Shown here: positions 1-6,981 of the stretch, piece after piece | How the letters are laid out: every line of letters begins with the position of its first letter | Numbering within the stretch: the first letter of the stretch is position 1 | Source of the DNA: a candidate division FCPU426 bacterium | GTDB taxonomy: Bacteria; Oederibacteriota; JAAXVQ01; JAUVAV01 | Assembly (NCBI GenBank): GCA_040756875.1 | Contig: JBFLYH010000003.1 | Span: 160,001-224,000 of the forward strand | DNA length: 64,000 nt | Reading direction: 5' to 3' | Notes under the pieces: generated by a model | What the model was told of the DNA's origin: nothing | Databases searched by the model: none | The model's input: only the letters and a program-made list of their open reading frames with translations | Made by a program: the position numbers and the translations under genes

Positions 1-2013
1 AAAATCACTCCAGTTGGTGAAACTGAAATTACTATTGATAAATATTTCATCTTGCTCATTTTTATCACTAATATCATAGATACTCAATATCTTTCTTTTG
101 AAATCTTTAGTGAAAAAAGGGCACGAAAGAAGATCAAAAAGTAGTAGTGTCAATTCCGCTTTTTTTATTCTTTTTTCCTGCGGAACTTCAGAGATGGTTT
201 CACAAATATACTGTTGCAATATACATTTCAACATATTATAACGTGGTTTATTTTCTATATAGAACAACAGAACAGTTATCGAGAAATAATTCAGTTTATA
301 TTTAACCTGTTTTTCCTCAAGATCAATATTAAAACACTTGCCCAACACTTCTTCTTCTAACCGGTAATCCCTCCCCAGTTCTTTTAATGCCGTAAGAAGA
401 TAAAGCGTTTCAATTTGATAATACTCCGTATTTTTATTTTTATTGATAATAATAAATATATTGTCATATATTTTTTTAAATATTACGTTTTTATTTTCAT
501 TGTTAAAATTGCCTTTAATTTTTGCTGCCTTAATCACTTTACTAATTATCATACATAATTTAATCGTCGTATTAACTCTCGGCGATACAGAATATATAAA
601 AAATACGAATTCCAGTAATTCTAATATTGCTTTAGTCACCTTCTTTTCCTGAGCACGTTTATCTTCAATACCGCAATATATTTTAATAAGTTTCAATATC
701 CTTCTATCAATACCAGCAAGTGTATAATTCAAAACATCCTTATATTCGATTCCGGCGTTATAAATAATTATTTTAAATTTTGTGATCAACTTATTCGAAC
801 TGATATATATTGAGTACTTTTTATCACCTTCATCAGTATCATCAGCAGCATCTGTATCAATATTATCTTTTAATTCAGCAGATACTTTGTATTTCATATA
901 TTTATTCAGCAAGTCGCTAATATTTGATTTCGCAATTGTTATTTTAGTAATAATGGGTTTTTTAAATAACATTGTTTTCGAGTCGTTAATATATAAATTG
1001 TATTCTTTTAATTGACGTCTATATTCTTTTACTATTTCAGTTTTGGTTTTTTCATCATTAAAATAAACAAAATAGTCATCTACATAACGGTATATTTCGT
1101 AGTCATTTTTATAATATATTCTATTTTTCTCTAATCCGCGTAAAACATTCAAATCAATTTTTTGCATTATTATTTCAGCAAATATTCTTGAAAACTCAGG
1201 ACCAATAACAATTCCATTGGTTTCTCCATAGTTCATGTTCTGCATCATAGTATCGAACTTCCCACCAAATGTAGCTTTAGATTCTTCCGTCTTTTCTTTT
1301 ACTATTTCCTTATTCAATATTGCCCAAGAAATGGAGTGGCTATAAATACTATCAAAGCACTTTAAGATATCGAATTTCATCATTTCGTTATATTTTTTTT
1401 CACATTCATGATACTTGTATGATTCGTAAAATTTGTATACATTGCTAAATTCTTTATATGTGAAATATGTTTTCAAACTTTCATATTCTTTATCATATTC
1501 TTCCATCGATTTGTGCTCGTGATCATGAGCTAACAATTCCAAATGTGTTTTATCTTTATAGTAGATATGTTTTGCCGTTTTATATGGTCTCCTGATTGAG
1601 AAAGGGCTAATATTACAATAATATAAAATCATTTCCTTATATTTATCATAGTGTTCAATTACTGCCAGTTGATTCTTTGGATGGATAATTGTTAATTGTC
1701 TAAAATCATTTTCATTATGGGATATCCTATAATTAAATGGTATCGTTGTGTAGTCCTTCGCACATTTCAGAGATATACTTTGATTTACAATAGGCATGTT
1801 TTTTGGAAAACCAAATAATAATTTTATAACTGACCCAAAAGACGGTTCGCTATTTCCCCATTTTAGTTTATTTTCCGCAAGGCATATTTTGTTACGATTA
1901 ATAAATTCTCGAAAACGCCGGTTTGAAAATGATATCGGAATTTCATATGGTAAAACATCGGAAAGAATCACTCTTTCTTTTTTCATACTTATCTTTTTTT
2001 TCTTGTGCTTCAT
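1..2013 (-). CDS. drt3b: Antiviral reverse transcriptase Drt3b (UG8-like), DRT type 3; 3' end runs off the window
   Basis: Not in the ORF track (no stop in window). Manual translation from the ATG at 2013 gives MKHKKKKISMKKERVILSDVLPYEIPISFSNRRF...KFDILKCFDSIYSHSISWA...QNMNYGETNGIVIGPEFSRIFAEII...YRYVDDYF (YVDD at about 1075-1086)...AELTLLLFDLLSCPFF...FSFTNWSDF. 671 codons to the edge; the N-terminal, RT-core and C-terminal segments I translated are in one frame. Starts 11 nt after the drt3a stop. Confidence 0.9.
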   Translation of the reverse strand, partial: MKHKKKKISMKKERVILSDVLPYEIPISFSNRRFREFINRNKICLAENKLKWGNSEPSFGSVIKLLFGFPKNMPIVNQSISLKCAKDYTTIPFNYRISHNENDFRQLTIIHPKNQLAVIEHYDKYKEMILYYCNISPFSIRRPYKTAKHIYYKDKTHLELLAHDHEHKSMEEYDKEYESLKTYFTYKEFSNVYKFYESYKYHECEKKYNEMMKFDILKCFDSIYSHSISWAILNKEIVKEKTEESKATFGGKFDTMMQNMNYGETNGIVIGPEFSRIFAEIIMQKIDLNVLRGLEKNRIYYKNDYEIYRYVDDYFVYFNDEKTKTEIVKEYRRQLKEYNLYINDSKTMLFKKPIITKITIAKSNISDLLNKYMKYKVSAELKDNIDTDAADDTDEGDKKYSIYISSNKLITKFKIIIYNAGIEYKDVLNYTLAGIDRRILKLIKIYCGIEDKRAQEKKVTKAILELLEFVFFIYSVSPRVNTTIKLCMIISKVIKAAKIKGNFNNENKNVIFKKIYDNIFIIINKNKNTEYYQIETLYLLTALKELGRDYRLEEEVLGKCFNIDLEEKQVKYKLNYFSITVLLFYIENKPRYNMLKCILQQYICETISEVPQEKRIKKAELTLLLFDLLSCPFFTKDFKRKILSIYDISDKNEQDEIFINSNFSFTNWSDF

Positions 2014-2024
2014 TCCATTACCCT

Positions 2025-3344
2025 TTACCACATCTCAATTATTTTTTTTAATTCATATGATTCGAAAGGCGAATATCTCTTTGTCTCAAAACCTTCGCTA
2101 AAACTATACTTCAATAACCTAGCTTTAAGTTGGGAAGTATGTATTTCATTAATAATTTTAGTTCGTAAATAGTTATCCAAGTGTTGTAAATCTATCTTGT
2201 CCGTCAAATGACAATTAGAATAGTAAATACCCACTAATATATTTTGTTTATTGCCCTTTAACCGAGTATTTCCAGTTAAATATCTCACCCTTTTAACGAG
2301 TATTTTCCTCGCTTCTTTTTCATTAATTCTGCTTAAATTATTATAGTGATCGAATGACACATTTATTTTCTTGATATATTTCATATATTTTTGCTTAGTT
2401 AATTTTGTTTTGACCTGACCATCTTTAAACTCAATTCTATATCCAAGGTAATCAAATTCGCAAGATTGCTTTTTATCTAACAGGTTAAAGATAGTTGTTT
2501 TATCAATATTTATTTTTAATTCATATTTTTGTTCGATTATATCTTTTACTTGTGCTATGTAATCCGTTTTATCGCCCATTGAACTTGGAGTGAAAATAAT
2601 AACAATATCGTCAACATATCTTGAATAATATGCAAGATTAGGTAGCTTGTTGATTTCTTTATCAATTTGACTCATATATATTTCTGCAAAATAAGCGCTA
2701 ACTCCAATTCCCCTCGGAATGCCTTTTTCACTCCCGGATAATTTTTTATACTCACTAAATATTTGTCGTACAATTTTTTTCGAAGTAGGTGTTAATAGAT
2801 CATTCTCATTTATTTGATTTATCAATCTATCTCGCGGGATACTTTCATAAAAATTGCTTATATCCGTTCTTAATACCTGTTTCGGGAACTTGTCTCCAAT
2901 GATTTTCAATAATTGATCTATTATTGTATTTCTGCTTGATTGTTTAACACCAAATAGTTTCGAAACATTCATTTGCAATTGTTTCATAATAAAATACTGC
3001 TCCGGCTTATCTCTAATAACGTAAATAAATTTACCGTCTTTATTTTTATTTGCTATTATTTCTACTTTAAAATCAGTCATCAATGCTTTTTGACTGACCT
3101 CCTCCAATTTCGCAGTTAGTTCTTTTTCCTTTTGTTCTTTTAGTTTTATTCTTTCACAATATATTTTATTACTTTCATCTTTAGTTAATTCTTTATTTTC
3201 TCTCAGCCGTATCGAATACTGTTTAATTTGTTCGGAGATTTTCTTAAGATCCGGAAAATATCTTCCCTCGAGATATATTCCTTTCCTATTTTCCAGATCC
3301 AATATTCTTCTAAAATTTTCTGCTGAAAACGATTGGCTTAGCAC
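2025..3344 (-). CDS. drt3a: Antiviral reverse transcriptase Drt3a (UG3-like), DRT type 3
   Basis: 439 aa; RT motifs RTDISNFYESI, GIPRGIGVSAYFAEIYM, RYVDDIVI, FDYLGY. GTG start with a purine-rich RBS. Directly upstream of a second, larger RT. Confidence 0.88.
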   Translation of the reverse strand: MLSQSFSAENFRRILDLENRKGIYLEGRYFPDLKKISEQIKQYSIRLRENKELTKDESNKIYCERIKLKEQKEKELTAKLEEVSQKALMTDFKVEIIANKNKDGKFIYVIRDKPEQYFIMKQLQMNVSKLFGVKQSSRNTIIDQLLKIIGDKFPKQVLRTDISNFYESIPRDRLINQINENDLLTPTSKKIVRQIFSEYKKLSGSEKGIPRGIGVSAYFAEIYMSQIDKEINKLPNLAYYSRYVDDIVIIFTPSSMGDKTDYIAQVKDIIEQKYELKINIDKTTIFNLLDKKQSCEFDYLGYRIEFKDGQVKTKLTKQKYMKYIKKINVSFDHYNNLSRINEKEARKILVKRVRYLTGNTRLKGNKQNILVGIYYSNCHLTDKIDLQHLDNYLRTKIINEIHTSQLKARLLKYSFSEGFETKRYSPFESYELKKIIEMW

Positions 3345-3447
3345 GGGTTAAAAGCCACCCCCTCTATATGACAATACCGAGAATATCTAGATTCAAAATA
3401 TCGAAAGAAGTATAATGACCTCAGTTTCTATTTACTTCGTTGCCTTT

Positions 3448-4284
3448 TCATCCTAGATATGCTAAAAGTGCCCCAGTAAAATGTAATGCTAATTGAGCAT
3501 CTTTAGGTTCCATAATTACACTATTTTGCTGTTCATGTCTTGCCAAGTGTAGATACCCAGAAAGTTCAACAATTATAGAATTAATTTTATCTGCTTTCTG
3601 ATGATCAGACACAATTTTATTTATAGCTTCTAAACCCCGCCCCATATCATCGCTTCCCGATGTATCTTTTATTAATGCTTCAAATGCTTTTCGACAATTC
3701 ATTAATGTTTCATCCCACAAGCCTCGCCGATAACAATTTATAGCATCATTAAATCGATCCAATGCCCGAGCTACATTTGGTTTTCGTTGAATACTACGCG
3801 CAGGTAATTCTATCAATTCAACTTCTGACCACGCAAACATTCTAAGGTGCTTAATCCATTCCGATTGAGGAATATGATAGTCTATCCTTGTATCTTCGGT
3901 TATTTGTTTATAAACCGGTTGTCCAAGTACAATCGGTTTAGGTTCCGTCTCAACTTGACATACTAGTGCTTGGGCATAAATTGTAAAATCAACATCGCCT
4001 CCCGCACGCTGCTCTTCAATATATTTCAAGACATTAGGCGTAAACTGAATCTCAATTGATCCTTGGGTGACTGTTCCTGGTTGTATTATTGGGGATAATA
4101 TATTCATTATTTTACCTTCAGCAATTGATGTTCCAGTTTTGCCGATAACCTTTACCCACACATCTAGAATGCATATAGCACACGTAGATTGGTTTCTTAT
4201 TTCACATTTTAATTCAAGAAGTCTAAGCGGAAGGCCACTTGAATAGCATTCCTTAATGGTTGTTGATAGCCTAACTTGTTCCAT
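3448..4284 (-). CDS. Hypothetical protein with a C-terminal HEPN/DUF4145-like helical domain
   Basis: 278 aa, GAGGTG RBS. The tail ALDRFNDAINCYRRGLWDETLMNCRKAFEAL...YLHLARHE...DAQLALHFTGALLAYL resembles DUF4145/Abi-type helical bundles. Confidence 0.55.
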   Translation of the reverse strand: MEQVRLSTTIKECYSSGLPLRLLELKCEIRNQSTCAICILDVWVKVIGKTGTSIAEGKIMNILSPIIQPGTVTQGSIEIQFTPNVLKYIEEQRAGGDVDFTIYAQALVCQVETEPKPIVLGQPVYKQITEDTRIDYHIPQSEWIKHLRMFAWSEVELIELPARSIQRKPNVARALDRFNDAINCYRRGLWDETLMNCRKAFEALIKDTSGSDDMGRGLEAINKIVSDHQKADKINSIIVELSGYLHLARHEQQNSVIMEPKDAQLALHFTGALLAYLG

Positions 4285-4420
4285 CAGTCACCTCATTGTA
4301 ATTGGGAACGTTGTTTGAATGATTAGGGCCGGAGTTAACTTATTAACTTAATCGCCGCGCTAGCTCCGCCCTTTTATCGATTATAACGGCTAGTATTGCC
4401 AGTTTGCCGCACAGTTTGCT

Positions 4421-5587
4421 TTACTTAATAATTGCCAACCTTGCTTTTCCAAGTTCTTTACCATCCATCATCAAATACGCCAGATAAATCCCATGTGGTA
4501 TATCTGAGCAATCCCAAATCACCGCTTGCCCTCTACCAGCCGATAGTGACTTTTCAATACTACTAACCGGTTCACCAACTACATTAAATATCAGGATTTG
4601 AATCTTTACCGCTCTATCCAAATTCATGATAAACCGCACTTGGTCTCTGGCGGGATTAGGCGAAACCATAAATAACTTCCCCGTCATATCAATATCTGCA
4701 AGTGTTCTTCCGGAGGTGGGAGTACGAGTCGCGGTATTGGAAATCGTAGTACTAGTAGGGGATACGTAAGGAGTCACAGTAAAAGAAGGCGAAATTGTCG
4801 GTGAAATGGTTATTGAAACAGAAGGAGTCAGAGTTAATGTTGGTGTTGAAGTGAGTGTGCCCGAATAGGTAAAGGTAGGCGTAATAGTTGGAGACGGAGT
4901 AAAAGTAGGAGAAATAGTATAAGTCGGAGTAATAGTCGGTGTTGGTGTAATGGTGGGGGTATTGGTTTTGGTGGCAGTGATCACGTCCAGGGTTATATCA
5001 TCCACGCGGATGAAACTAGCATCCGAAATGCCGTCGTCATAGGCGCGAAAAACCAGTTGGACGTTCTGGCCGCTATATACGCTTAAATTGAGATATTTGT
5101 CGATCCGTGTCCAGCCAGGTGTGGGTGTGGGCTGGACTAAAAACCCGTTGCCCTGCTCCCTGAAAAGCTGGATACCACCAAATGTGGCATCGGCATACAT
5201 CTGGGTCCCGAAAATATAGGTCACAAACCACTGATAGTAAGCGGTCAAGGTTGCGCCTAGTGCATCCCGAGGTATATCAATGTACTGAATAATACAAGAA
5301 TCAGAATAGCCGCCTAGACTGTTACCAGGCGCCACTACTGCAGTATTAGTAACGCCTGTGTGGTGGATCACGCCTTCATGCTGAGTGGGATAGAAAGTGG
5401 ACGGGCTAGCGGCAGTTACCCAGTTGGGAATACCACCCGCACCCGTAGTTTCAAAGTTGCCGTTTATAATAAGCTCTGTCGCCCAAGTTGTATTTACTCC
5501 GCCGATCAATACCAGTAAGAGAATGGATATAATTGAAGTTACTAACCAAGAAAGTAAAATGGGCAATTTACTTCTTTTAGGAGGCAA
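4421..5587 (-). CDS. Secreted protein: carbohydrate-binding-like beta-sandwich, Thr/Pro linker, T9SS type-A-like C-terminal domain
   Basis: Signal peptide, LIINGNFE...W...VDDITL jelly-roll signature, (TPTI)n linker, tail SPNPARD...WDC...GIYL...KARLAIIK. Confidence 0.7.
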   Translation of the reverse strand: MPPKRSKLPILLSWLVTSIISILLLVLIGGVNTTWATELIINGNFETTGAGGIPNWVTAASPSTFYPTQHEGVIHHTGVTNTAVVAPGNSLGGYSDSCIIQYIDIPRDALGATLTAYYQWFVTYIFGTQMYADATFGGIQLFREQGNGFLVQPTPTPGWTRIDKYLNLSVYSGQNVQLVFRAYDDGISDASFIRVDDITLDVITATKTNTPTITPTPTITPTYTISPTFTPSPTITPTFTYSGTLTSTPTLTLTPSVSITISPTISPSFTVTPYVSPTSTTISNTATRTPTSGRTLADIDMTGKLFMVSPNPARDQVRFIMNLDRAVKIQILIFNVVGEPVSSIEKSLSAGRGQAVIWDCSDIPHGIYLAYLMMDGKELGKARLAIIK

Positions 5588-5690
5588 GCAGGGGTCCTCC
5601 TGGGGTGATTTTGGCTTATTATCTACCGATTAGACTCGAATTCCACCCCAAAATAACATAAATTGCATATTTTTTTAAACAGTCAAAATC

Positions 5691-5894: not shown

Positions 5895-5963
5895 GGGACG
5901 TTGTTTAAATGTCAAAATGACGACTAACCCAGATTGCTTCGGGCCTTTCGGCCCTCGCAATGA
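5895..5963 (+). repeat. 69-bp direct repeat, copy 1 (REP-like hairpin GATTGCTTC...CTCGCAATGA), flanking the Fic gene
   Basis: 59/69 identical by manual alignment to 7059-7127. Confidence 0.8.
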
Positions 5964-5973
5964 TGCGCAAACG

Positions 5974-6981
5974 TCAGCTTAAATAATACTTTGTCGCCCG
6001 GGCTTTCCCTGCCATCCCGACGATTCCGGCTTTGATCAAAGGCGCGATCAGTTGATTGACCCTGGCCCGGTTGATTTTCATGGCTGCGCCGATGTCTTTG
6101 GAACTGCAGCCCGCGTTTTGCTTGATAAAATGAATAAGCTCTTCCTGCTTGCCTGAAAGCGCGATCTCCTTTTTAGGCGAAACCGCCAACTGGTAGATCC
6201 TGCCCAGGGCGCTCTCCAGGGTTTCCAAAACGCCCTGGGCGAGGTAATCCAGCCAGTAGGTCAAATCGTAATCCAGCTCCCGGGCCTGGCGGATTTTCTG
6301 GTAGTATTTTTCCCGGTCTTGGGCGAAATATTCATCCAGCGCGGCAATATGCGACGGATCGTACTGCCCGTGGTAGAGAATCCACAGCGAAACCGCCCTG
6401 GCCAGCCTGCCGTTGCCGTCGGCAAAGGGGTGGATGGTCACGAACTGGTGGTGGAACACGGCGCTGGCGATGACAGGGTTCATACCTTTTGCGCGCGCGA
6501 GCCATGCCAATAAATCGCGCATGAGTTTCGGAACCGCGGGCGCAGCGGGGGGGGTGTATGCCGTGCGGCCCTTGCCATCGAGCACGTAGTTCTGCACTTC
6601 GCGGTAGCGGCCGCATTTCTCGGGGTTGACCAATCCCCGGGTGATCATGCGGTGCAGGCGCAGCAGGTCCTTTTCAGCCACGGGTTTGTCCGCGTGGTCC
6701 AGCACCCATTGCAGGGCCTGGATATAATTGGCGACTTCCCTTTTCTGCCTTTCGTCCGCCCTGACCTCTTTTCGCCCGCGCAAGGCGGCCACCTGTTCGA
6801 GCGAAAGCCGGTTCCCCTCGATCCAGGTCGAAGAATGGACGTTGCGGTTGAATGCTTCGGTTTGGAGCATCAGCTTGGCCGGCAGACGAACGCGGCTCTT
6901 GCGGATATCCGCCTGGAGCGCCGCGATCTTTTCGATGCAGCCGAGGAAATATTCGGTAATGCGGTAATTGGGTCGGTACAT
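5974..6981 (-). CDS. Fic family protein with C-terminal winged HTH
   Basis: Canonical HPFADGNGRLAR motif, SSTWIEGN inhibitory-type motif, HTH-like tail. Confidence 0.92.
   Translation of the reverse strand: MYRPNYRITEYFLGCIEKIAALQADIRKSRVRLPAKLMLQTEAFNRNVHSSTWIEGNRLSLEQVAALRGRKEVRADERQKREVANYIQALQWVLDHADKPVAEKDLLRLHRMITRGLVNPEKCGRYREVQNYVLDGKGRTAYTPPAAPAVPKLMRDLLAWLARAKGMNPVIASAVFHHQFVTIHPFADGNGRLARAVSLWILYHGQYDPSHIAALDEYFAQDREKYYQKIRQARELDYDLTYWLDYLAQGVLETLESALGRIYQLAVSPKKEIALSGKQEELIHFIKQNAGCSSKDIGAAMKINRARVNQLIAPLIKAGIVGMAGKARATKYYLS

Follow-up and report, generated by a model that had tools for sequence, protein, structure and literature searches.

A probably complete DRT3 anti-phage locus in an AT-rich genomic insertion of a candidate division FCPU426 bacterium

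The window analysed here, that is, the whole stretch of 64,000 nucleotides, is part of contig C3 of a 3.22-Mb host genome that comprises 7 contigs and is 100% complete. The host is an uncultured groundwater bacterium from a candidate phylum known only from metagenomes; its RecA resembles that of candidate division FCPU426, which fits the poorly studied lineage suspected in the original prediction for this DNA. The left end of the window encompasses two reverse transcriptase (RT) genes, and the features associated with them extend past the window edge into a flank-extended stretch, L001 (C3:159841-159955 corresponds to L001 9841-9955). The features are the following (coordinates are those of the window unless L001 or C3 is specified):

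1..2013 and 47 nt more beyond the left edge (complete reading frame L001 9953-12031), minus strand: drt3b, a UG8-type (Class 1) RT of 686 aa
2025..3344, minus strand: drt3a, a UG3-type (Class 2) RT of 439 aa (ORF, PADLOC Drt3a, NF041747, PDB 9z6y_A)
3448..4284, minus strand: p278, a HEPN/Abi_C-like protein (weak Pfam HEPN match)
4421-5587, minus strand: p388, a T9SS-tail protein
C3:159841-159955 (L001 9841-9955), 45 to 159 nt left of window base 1, minus strand: DRT3 non-coding RNA (ncRNA; covariance model)
L001 9951-9946 with 9919-9914, minus strand: ncRNA helix P1, which closes a 26-nt loop
L001 9927-9922, minus strand: the 5'-ACACAC-3' template in the P1 loop, unpaired in the MFE fold
L001 9913-9883, minus strand: ncRNA stem-loop 2
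L001 9882-9857, minus strand: ncRNA stem-loop 3 with a U-run
L001 9074-9325, outside the window, minus strand: XRE-type HTH gene
C3:159072-165586 (1..5586 in the window and 928 nt beyond the left edge), no strand: strain-specific 6.5-kb insertion (empty site, GC profile)
5895..5921, plus strand: right copy of a 27-nt dispersed repeat (inverted repeat I1)
C3:159041-159067, outside the window and abutting the left end of the insertion, inverted: left partner of this repeat, 100% complementary to the right copy

Both RT genes are uninterrupted. The minus-strand ORF of drt3a carries its YVDD motif at 2607-2618 (residue 243), where the original prediction had placed a 439-aa RT, and 11 nt separate its stop codon from the ATG of drt3b on the same strand. 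The second RT had been described as an unlisted minus-strand frame of at least 671 codons with a YVDD of its own, and this description proved exact: the frame is open from 2031 to window base 1, the motif is located at 1075-1086 (residue 310), and the ATG at 2013 is the start in the database gene call as well as the consensus start of the family. Beyond the 671 codons inside the window, the adjacent DNA contains 15 further codons ending ...KSQEVY-stop, with the stop codon at C3:159953-159955; an internal stop was looked for in the window frame (1-2013) and in the left flank, and none was found.

Two independent model libraries, together with solved structures, assign the two proteins to their families. 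Drt3a matches the PADLOC Drt3a model with an E-value of 8e-113 (next-best family RT_UG17, 1.7e-30), scores 375.5 bits against the NCBIfam Drt3a equivalog NF041747 (cut-off 200), with residues 1-439 aligned to model positions 1-412 of 412, and is similar to PDB 9z6y_A, “Drt3a reverse transcriptase protein” (E 5.4e-23). Drt3b matches the PADLOC Drt3b model with an E-value of 4.2e-203 (next-best Drt6, 3.1e-46) and the equivalog NF041748 with 742.1 bits (cut-off 350; residues 14-686 covered); it aligns with the solved Drt3b chains along its whole length, including the C-terminal alpha-repeat domain (PDB 26cz_A, E 1.8e-88; 9z6y_H, “Drt3b”, E 2.1e-64). Among the related loci, drt3a is located directly upstream of drt3b in 78 of 80, and the remaining 2 are cut at a contig end.

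The residues E24, R105, D215, F220, R276, Y310, D312, D313 and the C-terminal Y686 of Drt3b are invariant across 28 homologues. In the alignment with the SUMO-EcoDRT3b chain of 26cz, the E. coli residues E22, R71, D182/I183, F187, R241 and Y276-V277-D278 correspond to identical residues in Drt3b; from this alignment and the 28 homologues, the counterparts of E22, R241, R71 and Y666 are E24, R276, R105 and Y686, respectively. The roles of these residues, namely, the templating Glu/Arg pair, the stacking Arg and the priming Tyr, have been described in PMC13174585. By alignment, Drt3b retains all the residues to which the priming and “templating” of poly(dC-dA) synthesis have been ascribed. The tail ends in VY-stop in the present protein and in 74 of the 79 complete tails; of the other five, 4 carry a single additional residue and 1 (L020) diverges.

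Immediately after the drt3b stop codon, there is a structured RNA of roughly 100 nt that contains ACACAC, so the expectation that the ncRNA lay just beyond the left edge was correct. A covariance model, R1, trained on 30 DRT3 loci that did not include the present one, scores this RNA at 94.8 bits (E 2.3e-19), the sole match in the entire genome. The identification rests on this model of our own because Rfam has no family for this RNA: a scan of the left flank yielded no family at E-values up to 1, and Rfam 15 apparently lacks a DRT3 ncRNA model. The MFE of the RNA is -32.2 kcal/mol (z -5.3), with 0 of 200 shuffles as good, and stem-loop 3 is the sole terminator-like site on the minus strand in the ncRNA region, the RNA being predicted to terminate near C3:159850; a promoter scan produced 25 sites, with 24.5 expected. 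In the alignment fitted to R1, the three helices of the model are 94.2% paired over 68 sequences vs 72.8% in shuffles, and both-sided changes occur in all 17 pairs, a result matched by none of 500 shuffles; RNAalifold applied to a plain MAFFT alignment detected compensatory changes in 15 of the 17 pairs.

All 79 related loci that have downstream DNA contain ACACAC no more than 250 nt past the drt3b stop, and the DRT3 locus of an E. coli plasmid shows the same P1/loop/ACACAC layout. Of the 68 aligned ncRNAs, 51 have a hairpin that abuts the 5' side of the template, as does the E. coli plasmid copy; in the remaining 17, the present RNA among them, the 18 nt that precede ACACAC are unstructured. 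We did not treat the hairpin as a defining feature, given that it is missing from a quarter of clear DRT3 loci.

Examination of the nucleotide composition bears out the earlier remark that the locus lies in AT-rich DNA: GC content is 27-32% over 1-3500 and 50-64% beyond 5000, and the cassette as a whole has 28% GC vs 60% for the genome. On the minus strand, the insertion comprises, in this order, p388, p278, drt3a, drt3b, the ncRNA, a spacer of ~0.5 kb and the XRE-type HTH gene. Drt3b was not found in 40 relatives, and in a same-genus genome, the site is empty, with the 27-nt repeat joined directly to a homologue of window 5587-5674. Given the GC contrast, the absence in 40 relatives and the empty site, the cassette is horizontally acquired, as originally proposed; the intact RT genes with their catalytic, templating and priming residues, and the ncRNA with its template, arrived within the 6.5-kb insertion. 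We considered the 27-nt inverted repeats as the termini of a DRT3-specific transposon and rejected this candidate because 20 dispersed copies, with the look of a REP family, are present in the genome (at ≤5 mismatches), one pair of which flanks a gene resembling a REP-associated tyrosine transposase. The ORFs of the insertion and their Pfam and NCBIfam matches include no integrase or transposase, and there is no tRNA gene within 18 kb.

With a probability of about 0.9, the locus represents the known anti-phage system DRT3 in full, with drt3a, drt3b and the ncRNA; the original prediction of an intact DRT3 holds with respect to the two uninterrupted genes, their family assignments and the ACACAC-containing ncRNA. 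It shares with EcoDRT3 (structures PDB 26cz and 9z6y/9z6z) the gene order drt3a-drt3b-ncRNA on one strand, the YVDD motif in both RTs, a Drt3b with the templating Glu/Arg, stacking Arg and C-terminal priming Tyr, and an ncRNA with ACACAC in a helix-closed loop right after the drt3b stop. It differs in that Drt3b is about 41% identical to that of the E. coli plasmid copy, the ncRNA is shorter, with no hairpin directly 5' of the template, and neither RecBCD nor AddAB is detectable in the host, which is a member of a candidate phylum and carries the cassette at a GC content 32 points below that of the genome.

DRT3 is by now a mechanistically solved, widespread system. In EcoDRT3, poly(dT-dG) is copied from ACACAC (Wang, Yoneyama et al. 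2026, PMC13174585), and the poly(GT/AC) product, which the original prediction had described as alternating GT/AC repeats, is in print in this paper and in two reviews (PMC13213688, PMC13314766), both of which also refer to a further DRT3 study (Deng et al. 2026, Science). By homology to its characterised E. coli counterpart, Drt3a would associate with the ncRNA and produce poly(dT-dG) by repeated copying of the exposed ACACAC. For Drt3b, the primer would be its own C-terminal tyrosine, Y686, to which it would add dC and dA in turn without a nucleic acid template, with the alternation enforced by E24 and R276 next to the catalytic site. The resulting strands would then anneal into poly(GT/AC) duplex DNA that a host nuclease would normally clear; when a phage blocks the clearing, the duplex would build up and the cell would stop, that is, undergo abortive infection. 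By analogy, the locus is presumably expressed in its FCPU426 host, where it would make such a DNA product and respond to a trigger by defending the cell against phages.

Like the missing hairpin of the ncRNA, the nuclease complement of the host is a minor departure. EcoDRT3 is restrained by RecBCD and triggered by the phage inhibitor Gam, and wild-type DRT3 could not be propagated in E. coli without RecBCD (PMC13174585). RecC, RecD and AddB were not found in the complete host genome, and the RecB and AddA models, far under their cut-offs, match nothing but a 974-aa fusion of a PcrA-like helicase and a PD-(D/E)XK nuclease (C1:656288-659212), the single such fusion in the genome. Because E. coli needs RecBCD for DRT3 and this host lacks it, either the restraint and the trigger differ here or the system may be silent. 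Among 25 other DRT3-bearing genomes, none has a RecC match and 3, including 2 from the clade of the present locus, have no match to either RecC or AddB, so that life without RecBCD is common among DRT3 carriers. We tentatively suggest, as a possibility less probable than its negation, that DRT3 works here without RecBCD or AddAB, with a nuclease and a phage trigger different from RecBCD and Gam, and that the hairpin-less ncRNA sets the template boundary by sequence or protein contacts. The candidates for the restraint would be the PcrA-like helicase-nuclease or transcriptional restraint by the XRE gene.

The silent alternative, under which the cassette is sequence-intact DRT3 cargo that does not function in this host, being either recently acquired, unexpressed AT-rich DNA of foreign origin or tolerated only when repressed, is improbable in our assessment. 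It would accommodate the missing RecC, RecD and AddB; a cassette of 28% GC might be poorly expressed in a 60% GC host, and the 32-point gap exceeds that in all 76 comparison loci, the largest of which is 24 points. Arguably, the XRE-type regulator in the same insertion, which matches defence “control protein”/CapH models with E-values of about 1e-10 to 1e-11, could keep the system repressed; such a gene, however, is present in only 1 of 80 other DRT3 loci, and was rejected as a part of DRT3. Furthermore, decay is seen neither in the two ORFs nor in the ncRNA or any of the key residues, all of which are intact, and the other DRT3-bearing genomes without RecC or AddB matches show that this host is no exception.

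Less probable still is an assembly or binning chimera, in which a true DRT3 from another organism would have been misjoined to this genome. Apart from the extreme compositional contrast, such an error could be suspected from the Logan contigs of the DNA run that may be the source: these cover the stretch without differences but break at the 27-nt repeat, with the left-flank contig ending at L083 5069 and the island contig starting at 5042, and no Logan contig has at least 31 letters on both sides of the left junction. The right junction, however, is spanned by a 516-nt contig (L083 11204-11719) with 0 differences, and the left one coincides exactly with the 27-nt repeat by which the empty site of the same-genus genome is marked. 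In addition, the island lies inside a contig of 431,916 bases, and other low-GC patches in the genome also adjoin copies of this repeat.

The UG3-UG8-ncRNA order and the exposed, globally conserved “CACACA”-like motif downstream of UG8 are shared with the UG3+UG8 groups of Mestre et al. 2022 (PMC9226505; groups 1-17 with the “canonical architecture”, 20 ncRNA groups), and we see no essential difference from these groups. DRT10, which consists of a UG17 RT, an ncRNA and a SLATT protein and performs telomerase-like repeat addition (PMC12632851), is similar in that a short ncRNA template is copied repeatedly and RT_UG17 is the nearest other family of Drt3a, but it combines one RT with the SLATT effector and has no protein-templated second strand. 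Retron identity was considered as well and rejected: the 25 PADLOC families listed for each RT include no retron model, the flank scan gave no Rfam family, and there is no adjacent effector gene. That the two RTs come from another RT system (a retron, DRT10/UG17 plus an effector, or adjacent single RTs of the AbiK/DRT4 type) is hardly credible: although both contain only the generic Pfam RVT_1 domain and show weaker matches to RT_UG17, Drt6, Drt4 and AbiK models, the E-values of the Drt3a and Drt3b models are better by more than 80 and more than 150 orders of magnitude, respectively, the curated equivalog cut-offs are passed, the locus has the ncRNA specific to DRT3, no SLATT or other effector lies next to the RTs, and the true UG17 and SLATT pair of this genome is located elsewhere (C1:1274757-1276901). 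When checked with PADLOC and NCBIfam for membership in retron or other UG clades, the RTs fell in UG3/Drt3a and UG8/Drt3b instead.

As a complete DRT3, the locus adds an ordinary new member to a recently solved family and leaves the knowledge of DRT3 unchanged. It does extend to a candidate phylum a mechanistically remarkable scheme, the use of a protein active site to specify an alternating DNA sequence, and provides a natural compact variant for comparison, with a short, hairpin-less template RNA and a host without RecBCD. There is also a lesson for annotation: half of the system, namely, the end of drt3b and the ncRNA, fell beyond the window and beyond any ORF list.

The neighbouring genes p278 and p388, along with a 74-aa BrnA-like gene, were considered as DRT3 accessories and rejected; each is found in 0 of 80 other DRT3 loci. 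The Pfam HEPN match of p278 is weak (E 0.0054, 17.3 bits, under the cut-off of 22), and the protein belongs to no PADLOC or NCBIfam family; its own family consists of 29 proteins, 4 of which contain PF14355 (Abi_C). Thus, p278 is probably a separate abortive-infection gene outside DRT3.

The left end of the window, together with the adjoining flank, carries a complete DRT3 locus, a member of a family that is already known and recently solved. The original prediction of an intact DRT3 in AT-rich DNA was correct in both observation and interpretation. The genes concerned are listed below; the window corresponds to G000:C3:160001-224000, and L001 denotes the fetched left flank (L001 coordinate = window coordinate + 10000).

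2025-3344, minus strand: drt3a (UG3-type RT), closed 439-aa ORF
2031 to base 1 of the window, minus strand: drt3b (UG8-type RT), open frame from the ORF scan
L001 9841-9955, minus strand: template ncRNA, located by covariance model
3448-4284, minus strand: p278, 278 aa, directly upstream of drt3a, 33-39% GC

The YVDD motifs of the two RTs lie exactly at the predicted positions, 2607-2618 (drt3a) and 1075-1086 (drt3b), and the predicted 11-nt gap separates the drt3a stop codon from the drt3b ATG at 2013, a start that matches the database gene call (686 aa) and the family consensus. The stop of drt3b, which was to be sought in the adjacent flank, was found there: the frame closes 15 codons past the window edge (...KSQEVY-stop, stop codon at L001 9953-9955), with no internal stops across the whole frame as read through window and flank. 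The GC content is 27-32% across 1-3500 versus 50-64% from 5000 onward. In PADLOC, Drt3a (E 8e-113; runner-up family RT_UG17, 1.7e-30) and Drt3b (E 4.2e-203; runner-up family Drt6, 3.1e-46) are the top families, and both proteins match the respective NCBI curated equivalogs end to end and above the cut-offs (375.5 bits versus 200, and 742.1 bits versus 350); RVT_1 is the sole Pfam domain found in each. Among PDB structures, Drt3b matches 26cz, a SUMO-fused RNA-directed DNA polymerase (E 1.8e-88), and the 'Drt3b' of 9z6y/9z6z (E 2.1e-64), and Drt3a matches the 'Drt3a' of 9z6y (E 5.4e-23). Out of 7999 scored candidates in the protein collection, 4452 are Drt3b relatives at E ≤1e-10, several of which carry the source annotation 'antiviral reverse transcriptase Drt3b'; the closest non-self relative is 65% identical.

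In the characterized E. coli system (EcoDRT3), drt3b is followed by the gene for the ncRNA, in which a loop presents the exposed tract 5'-ACACAC-3' (PMC13174585), and Mestre et al. 2022 describe, 3' of UG8, a 'CACACA'-like motif that is globally conserved (PMC9226505). The ncRNA of the present locus, anticipated just beyond the left edge as a structured RNA with an AC-repeat tract, is indeed a folded RNA exposing ACACAC, 45 to 159 nt left of window base 1. In the 100 nt following the drt3b stop, helix P1 (CCAUGC...GCAUGG) encloses a 26-nt loop that includes AUCACACACAU and is followed by a 12-bp stem-loop and a 9-bp stem-loop with a U-run, the latter being the only terminator-like site on its strand. 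The minimum free energy is -32.2 kcal/mol (z -5.3; none of 200 shuffles is as stable). No Rfam family was detected in this flank at E ≤1.

For an independent test of the ncRNA, 80 DRT3 loci from many phyla were gathered with an alignment query. All 79 loci with sequence available beyond drt3b have ACACAC within 250 nt after the stop; in 72 of them, the distance is 20-60 nt. Thirty of the 72, picked for diversity and with the present locus left out, formed the training alignment, for which RNAalifold gave 17 pairs in three helices, with compensatory changes in 15. The covariance model built from these 30 other loci scores the present ncRNA at 94.8 bits (E 2.3e-19), a match that is unique both in L001 plus the window and in the whole 3.22-Mb genome. 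Across 81 sources, the model produced 68 matches at E ≤0.01 (including the 30 training loci and the present one), all directly 3' of drt3b; the 13 misses are a locus cut at a contig end (L052) and 12 divergent Bacteroidota-clade loci that still have ACACAC. In the 68-sequence alignment, which is biased towards structure because it was fitted to the model, 94.2% of the cells are paired versus 72.8% in shuffles, and each of the 17 pairs has changes in both partners; none of 500 shuffles attains any of these measures.

Drt3b retains the functional residues described for the E. coli enzyme. EcoDRT3b primes DNA on Y666, enforces alternate dA/dC addition through E22 and R241 with the help of R71, holds a Mg2+ ion with D182, I183, and D278 (the latter inside YVDD), and contacts the sugar through F187 (PMC13174585). 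In the 26cz alignment used for residue transfer (chain numbering offset by 108 due to the SUMO tag), all these residues fall on identical ones in the present Drt3b, the counterparts being E24, R105, D215, F220, R276, Y310-V311-D312-D313, and the terminal Y686 (686-aa numbering). E24, R105, D215, F220, R276, Y310, D312, D313, and Y686 are invariant in 28 aligned homologues, with V311 conserved to 90% or more. Among 79 related loci with an intact Drt3b C-terminal tail (the count omits L052, where the contig end cuts drt3b), 74 terminate in ...VY-stop, 4 have one extra residue, and the tail of 1 (L020) is frameshift-like. From the homology of these residues and of the ncRNA to EcoDRT3, we infer a mechanism whereby Drt3a would copy ACACAC of the ncRNA repeatedly into poly(dT-dG), and Drt3b, priming on Y686, would add dC and dA in alternation, as dictated by E24 and R276; the two strands would anneal into a duplex, which a host dsDNA nuclease would normally keep from building up and whose accumulation would lead to abortive infection.

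The present locus and an E. coli plasmid DRT3, in which drt3b is annotated as two pieces and the ncRNA model match is 23 bits (E 2e-4), have P1, the loop, and ACACAC in a common layout; however, the plasmid ncRNA has a template-adjacent hairpin, which is lacking here, where the 18 loop nt 5' of ACACAC are unstructured. A 4-8-bp hairpin ending 0-3 nt before ACACAC is found in 51 of the 68 aligned ncRNAs, as well as in the plasmid copy, and is absent in 17, including the present one. Given that, according to Wang et al. (PMC13174585), read-through into the template-adjacent stem-loop truncates products, this hairpin may be a template boundary. In the Drt3b tree (78 rows; L052, L020, and L054 dropped by the length filter or for lack of downstream DNA), the present protein belongs to a clade (SH-aLRT 98) with two Omnitrophota MAGs, a Eubacteriales MAG, and a Termititenax genome, all hairpin-less. 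Over the well-supported branches, no fewer than 6 changes are needed to explain the hairpin-less state, which thus was gained and lost repeatedly; it is a modest lead, with no novelty in kind.

Among the 80 related loci (L002-L081), drt3a is immediately upstream of drt3b in 78, the other two being cut at a contig end. None of the 80 contains p278, the T9SS-tail protein p388, or the 74-aa BrnA-like gene, and one contains the XRE-type gene; judging by this comparison, no other gene beside the present locus is conserved with DRT3. Of 5.8 billion proteins, 29 belong to the p278 family, and Pfam Abi_C (PF14355) is present in 4 of these; the p278 C-terminus shows a weak HEPN match. p278 is probably an independent abortive-infection gene. 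The DRT3 cassette is AT-rich whatever the host: in all 76 related loci with at least 2.5 kb of flank, the GC content of drt3a-drt3b is below that of the flanks, by 9.5 points on average.

Horizontal acquisition, also part of the original prediction, is borne out by the extreme GC gap, the lack of Drt3b in relatives, and an uninserted site in a same-genus genome (G001). At 28.4% GC versus 60.2% for the genome, drt3ab ranks with the most AT-rich segments of 3.4 kb that the latter contains; the gap is 32 points, compared with 24 at most between RT genes and flanks in the 76 comparison loci. No Drt3b over the cut-off was detected in 40 relatives (1 from the same genus, 9 family, 4 order, and 26 phylum). 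In G001, the left-flank gene (77% identical) is followed by a 27-nt repeat abutting the homologue of window 5587-5674; because this repeat is directly joined to the right-flank homologue, the present genome (G000) carries a 6.5-kb insertion.

G000:C3:159072-165586 (928 nt left of the window to window 5586): insertion, from the G001 comparison
G000:C3:159041-159067, outside the window: left copy of the 27-nt repeat, abutting the insertion
5895-5921: right copy, perfect inverted partner of the left copy

The insertion consists of the XRE gene, a spacer, the ncRNA, drt3b, drt3a, p278, and p388; no tRNA or recombinase was seen in it. The sole DNA run containing the locus, labelled groundwater metagenome, may be its source: its Logan contigs show 0 differences, crossing the right junction and breaking at the repeat on the left. 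Mean word depth is 37.9 for the island contig (5042-11051 in L083, that is, to window 5051) and 50-56 for the flanking contigs, which could reflect library AT-bias or an insertion-free sub-population but is a flag only, contig depth being unreliable here. By RecA, the host is closest, among named relatives, to candidate division FCPU426 (86% identical across 87% of the query).

E. coli knock-outs of recB, recC, or recD could not propagate wild-type DRT3, and in E. coli the system is triggered by lambda Gam (PMC13174585). Unlike the EcoDRT3 host, which has RecBCD, the present genome, 100% complete by marker genes, yielded neither RecBCD nor AddAB: there was no match to RecC or RecD, none to the Gram-positive AddB model, and one of 22 bits, confined to the nuclease domain, to the alpha-type AddB model; the best RecB score was 141.7 bits versus the cut-off of 696. 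All weak RecB/AddB-type matches fall on one protein, the only RecB/AddA-like candidate, for which the RecC, RecD, and AddB partners were not found.

G000:C1:656288-659212: 974-aa PcrA-like helicase (PcrA model 467 bits, cut-off 911) with a C-terminal Cas4-like PD-(D/E)XK nuclease domain

Among 25 other DRT3-bearing genomes (completeness not given), RecC is found in none, and AddB-like matches in 19 with the alpha-type and in 14 with the Gram-positive model; neither matched in 3, 2 of them in the clade of the present locus. The RecC model matched E. coli alone among 14 control genomes. Against these 25 genomes, the missing RecBCD/AddAB appears less unusual than at first, a modest lead with no novelty in kind.

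The 27-nt repeat has 20 genome copies with up to 5 mismatches, often clustered or tandem with a period of ~82 nt, which adjoin low-GC patches bearing toxin-antitoxin pairs and defence-type genes. Between two inverted copies is a Y1 transposase that contains a DnaA-C-like HTH and, against the model for REP-associated tyrosine transposases (cut-off 80), scores 79.8 bits; the repeat looks like a REP/RAYT family with sites coinciding with island junctions.

G000:C1:109110, C1:1033667, C2:197275, and C2:398517-398710: examples of the 18 further 27-nt repeat copies
G000:C1:1274757-1276901 (5757-7901 in L095, a stretch of that contig), minus strand: UG17-type RT and SLATT_5, second RT defence system in the genome
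5693-5876, 8035-8222, and 10648-10716 (L083 11693-11876, 14035-14222, and 16648-16716; families D3/D5, I3-I12): second repeat family, ~70 nt (ACCACGAAGGCACGAAGG...)
5974-6981, minus strand: Fic-domain protein with a C-terminal winged-helix domain

By its PADLOC profiles (RT_UG17, E 3.9e-130; RTasSLATT, E 5.7e-40), the second RT system is assigned as a DRT10 gene pair; it has 31% GC and adjoins two 27-nt repeat copies. On the island's right side, the ~70-nt repeats form intergenic inverted pairs, and the Fic gene lies between two 77-nt repeats that are 83% alike and each start with the 27-nt repeat.
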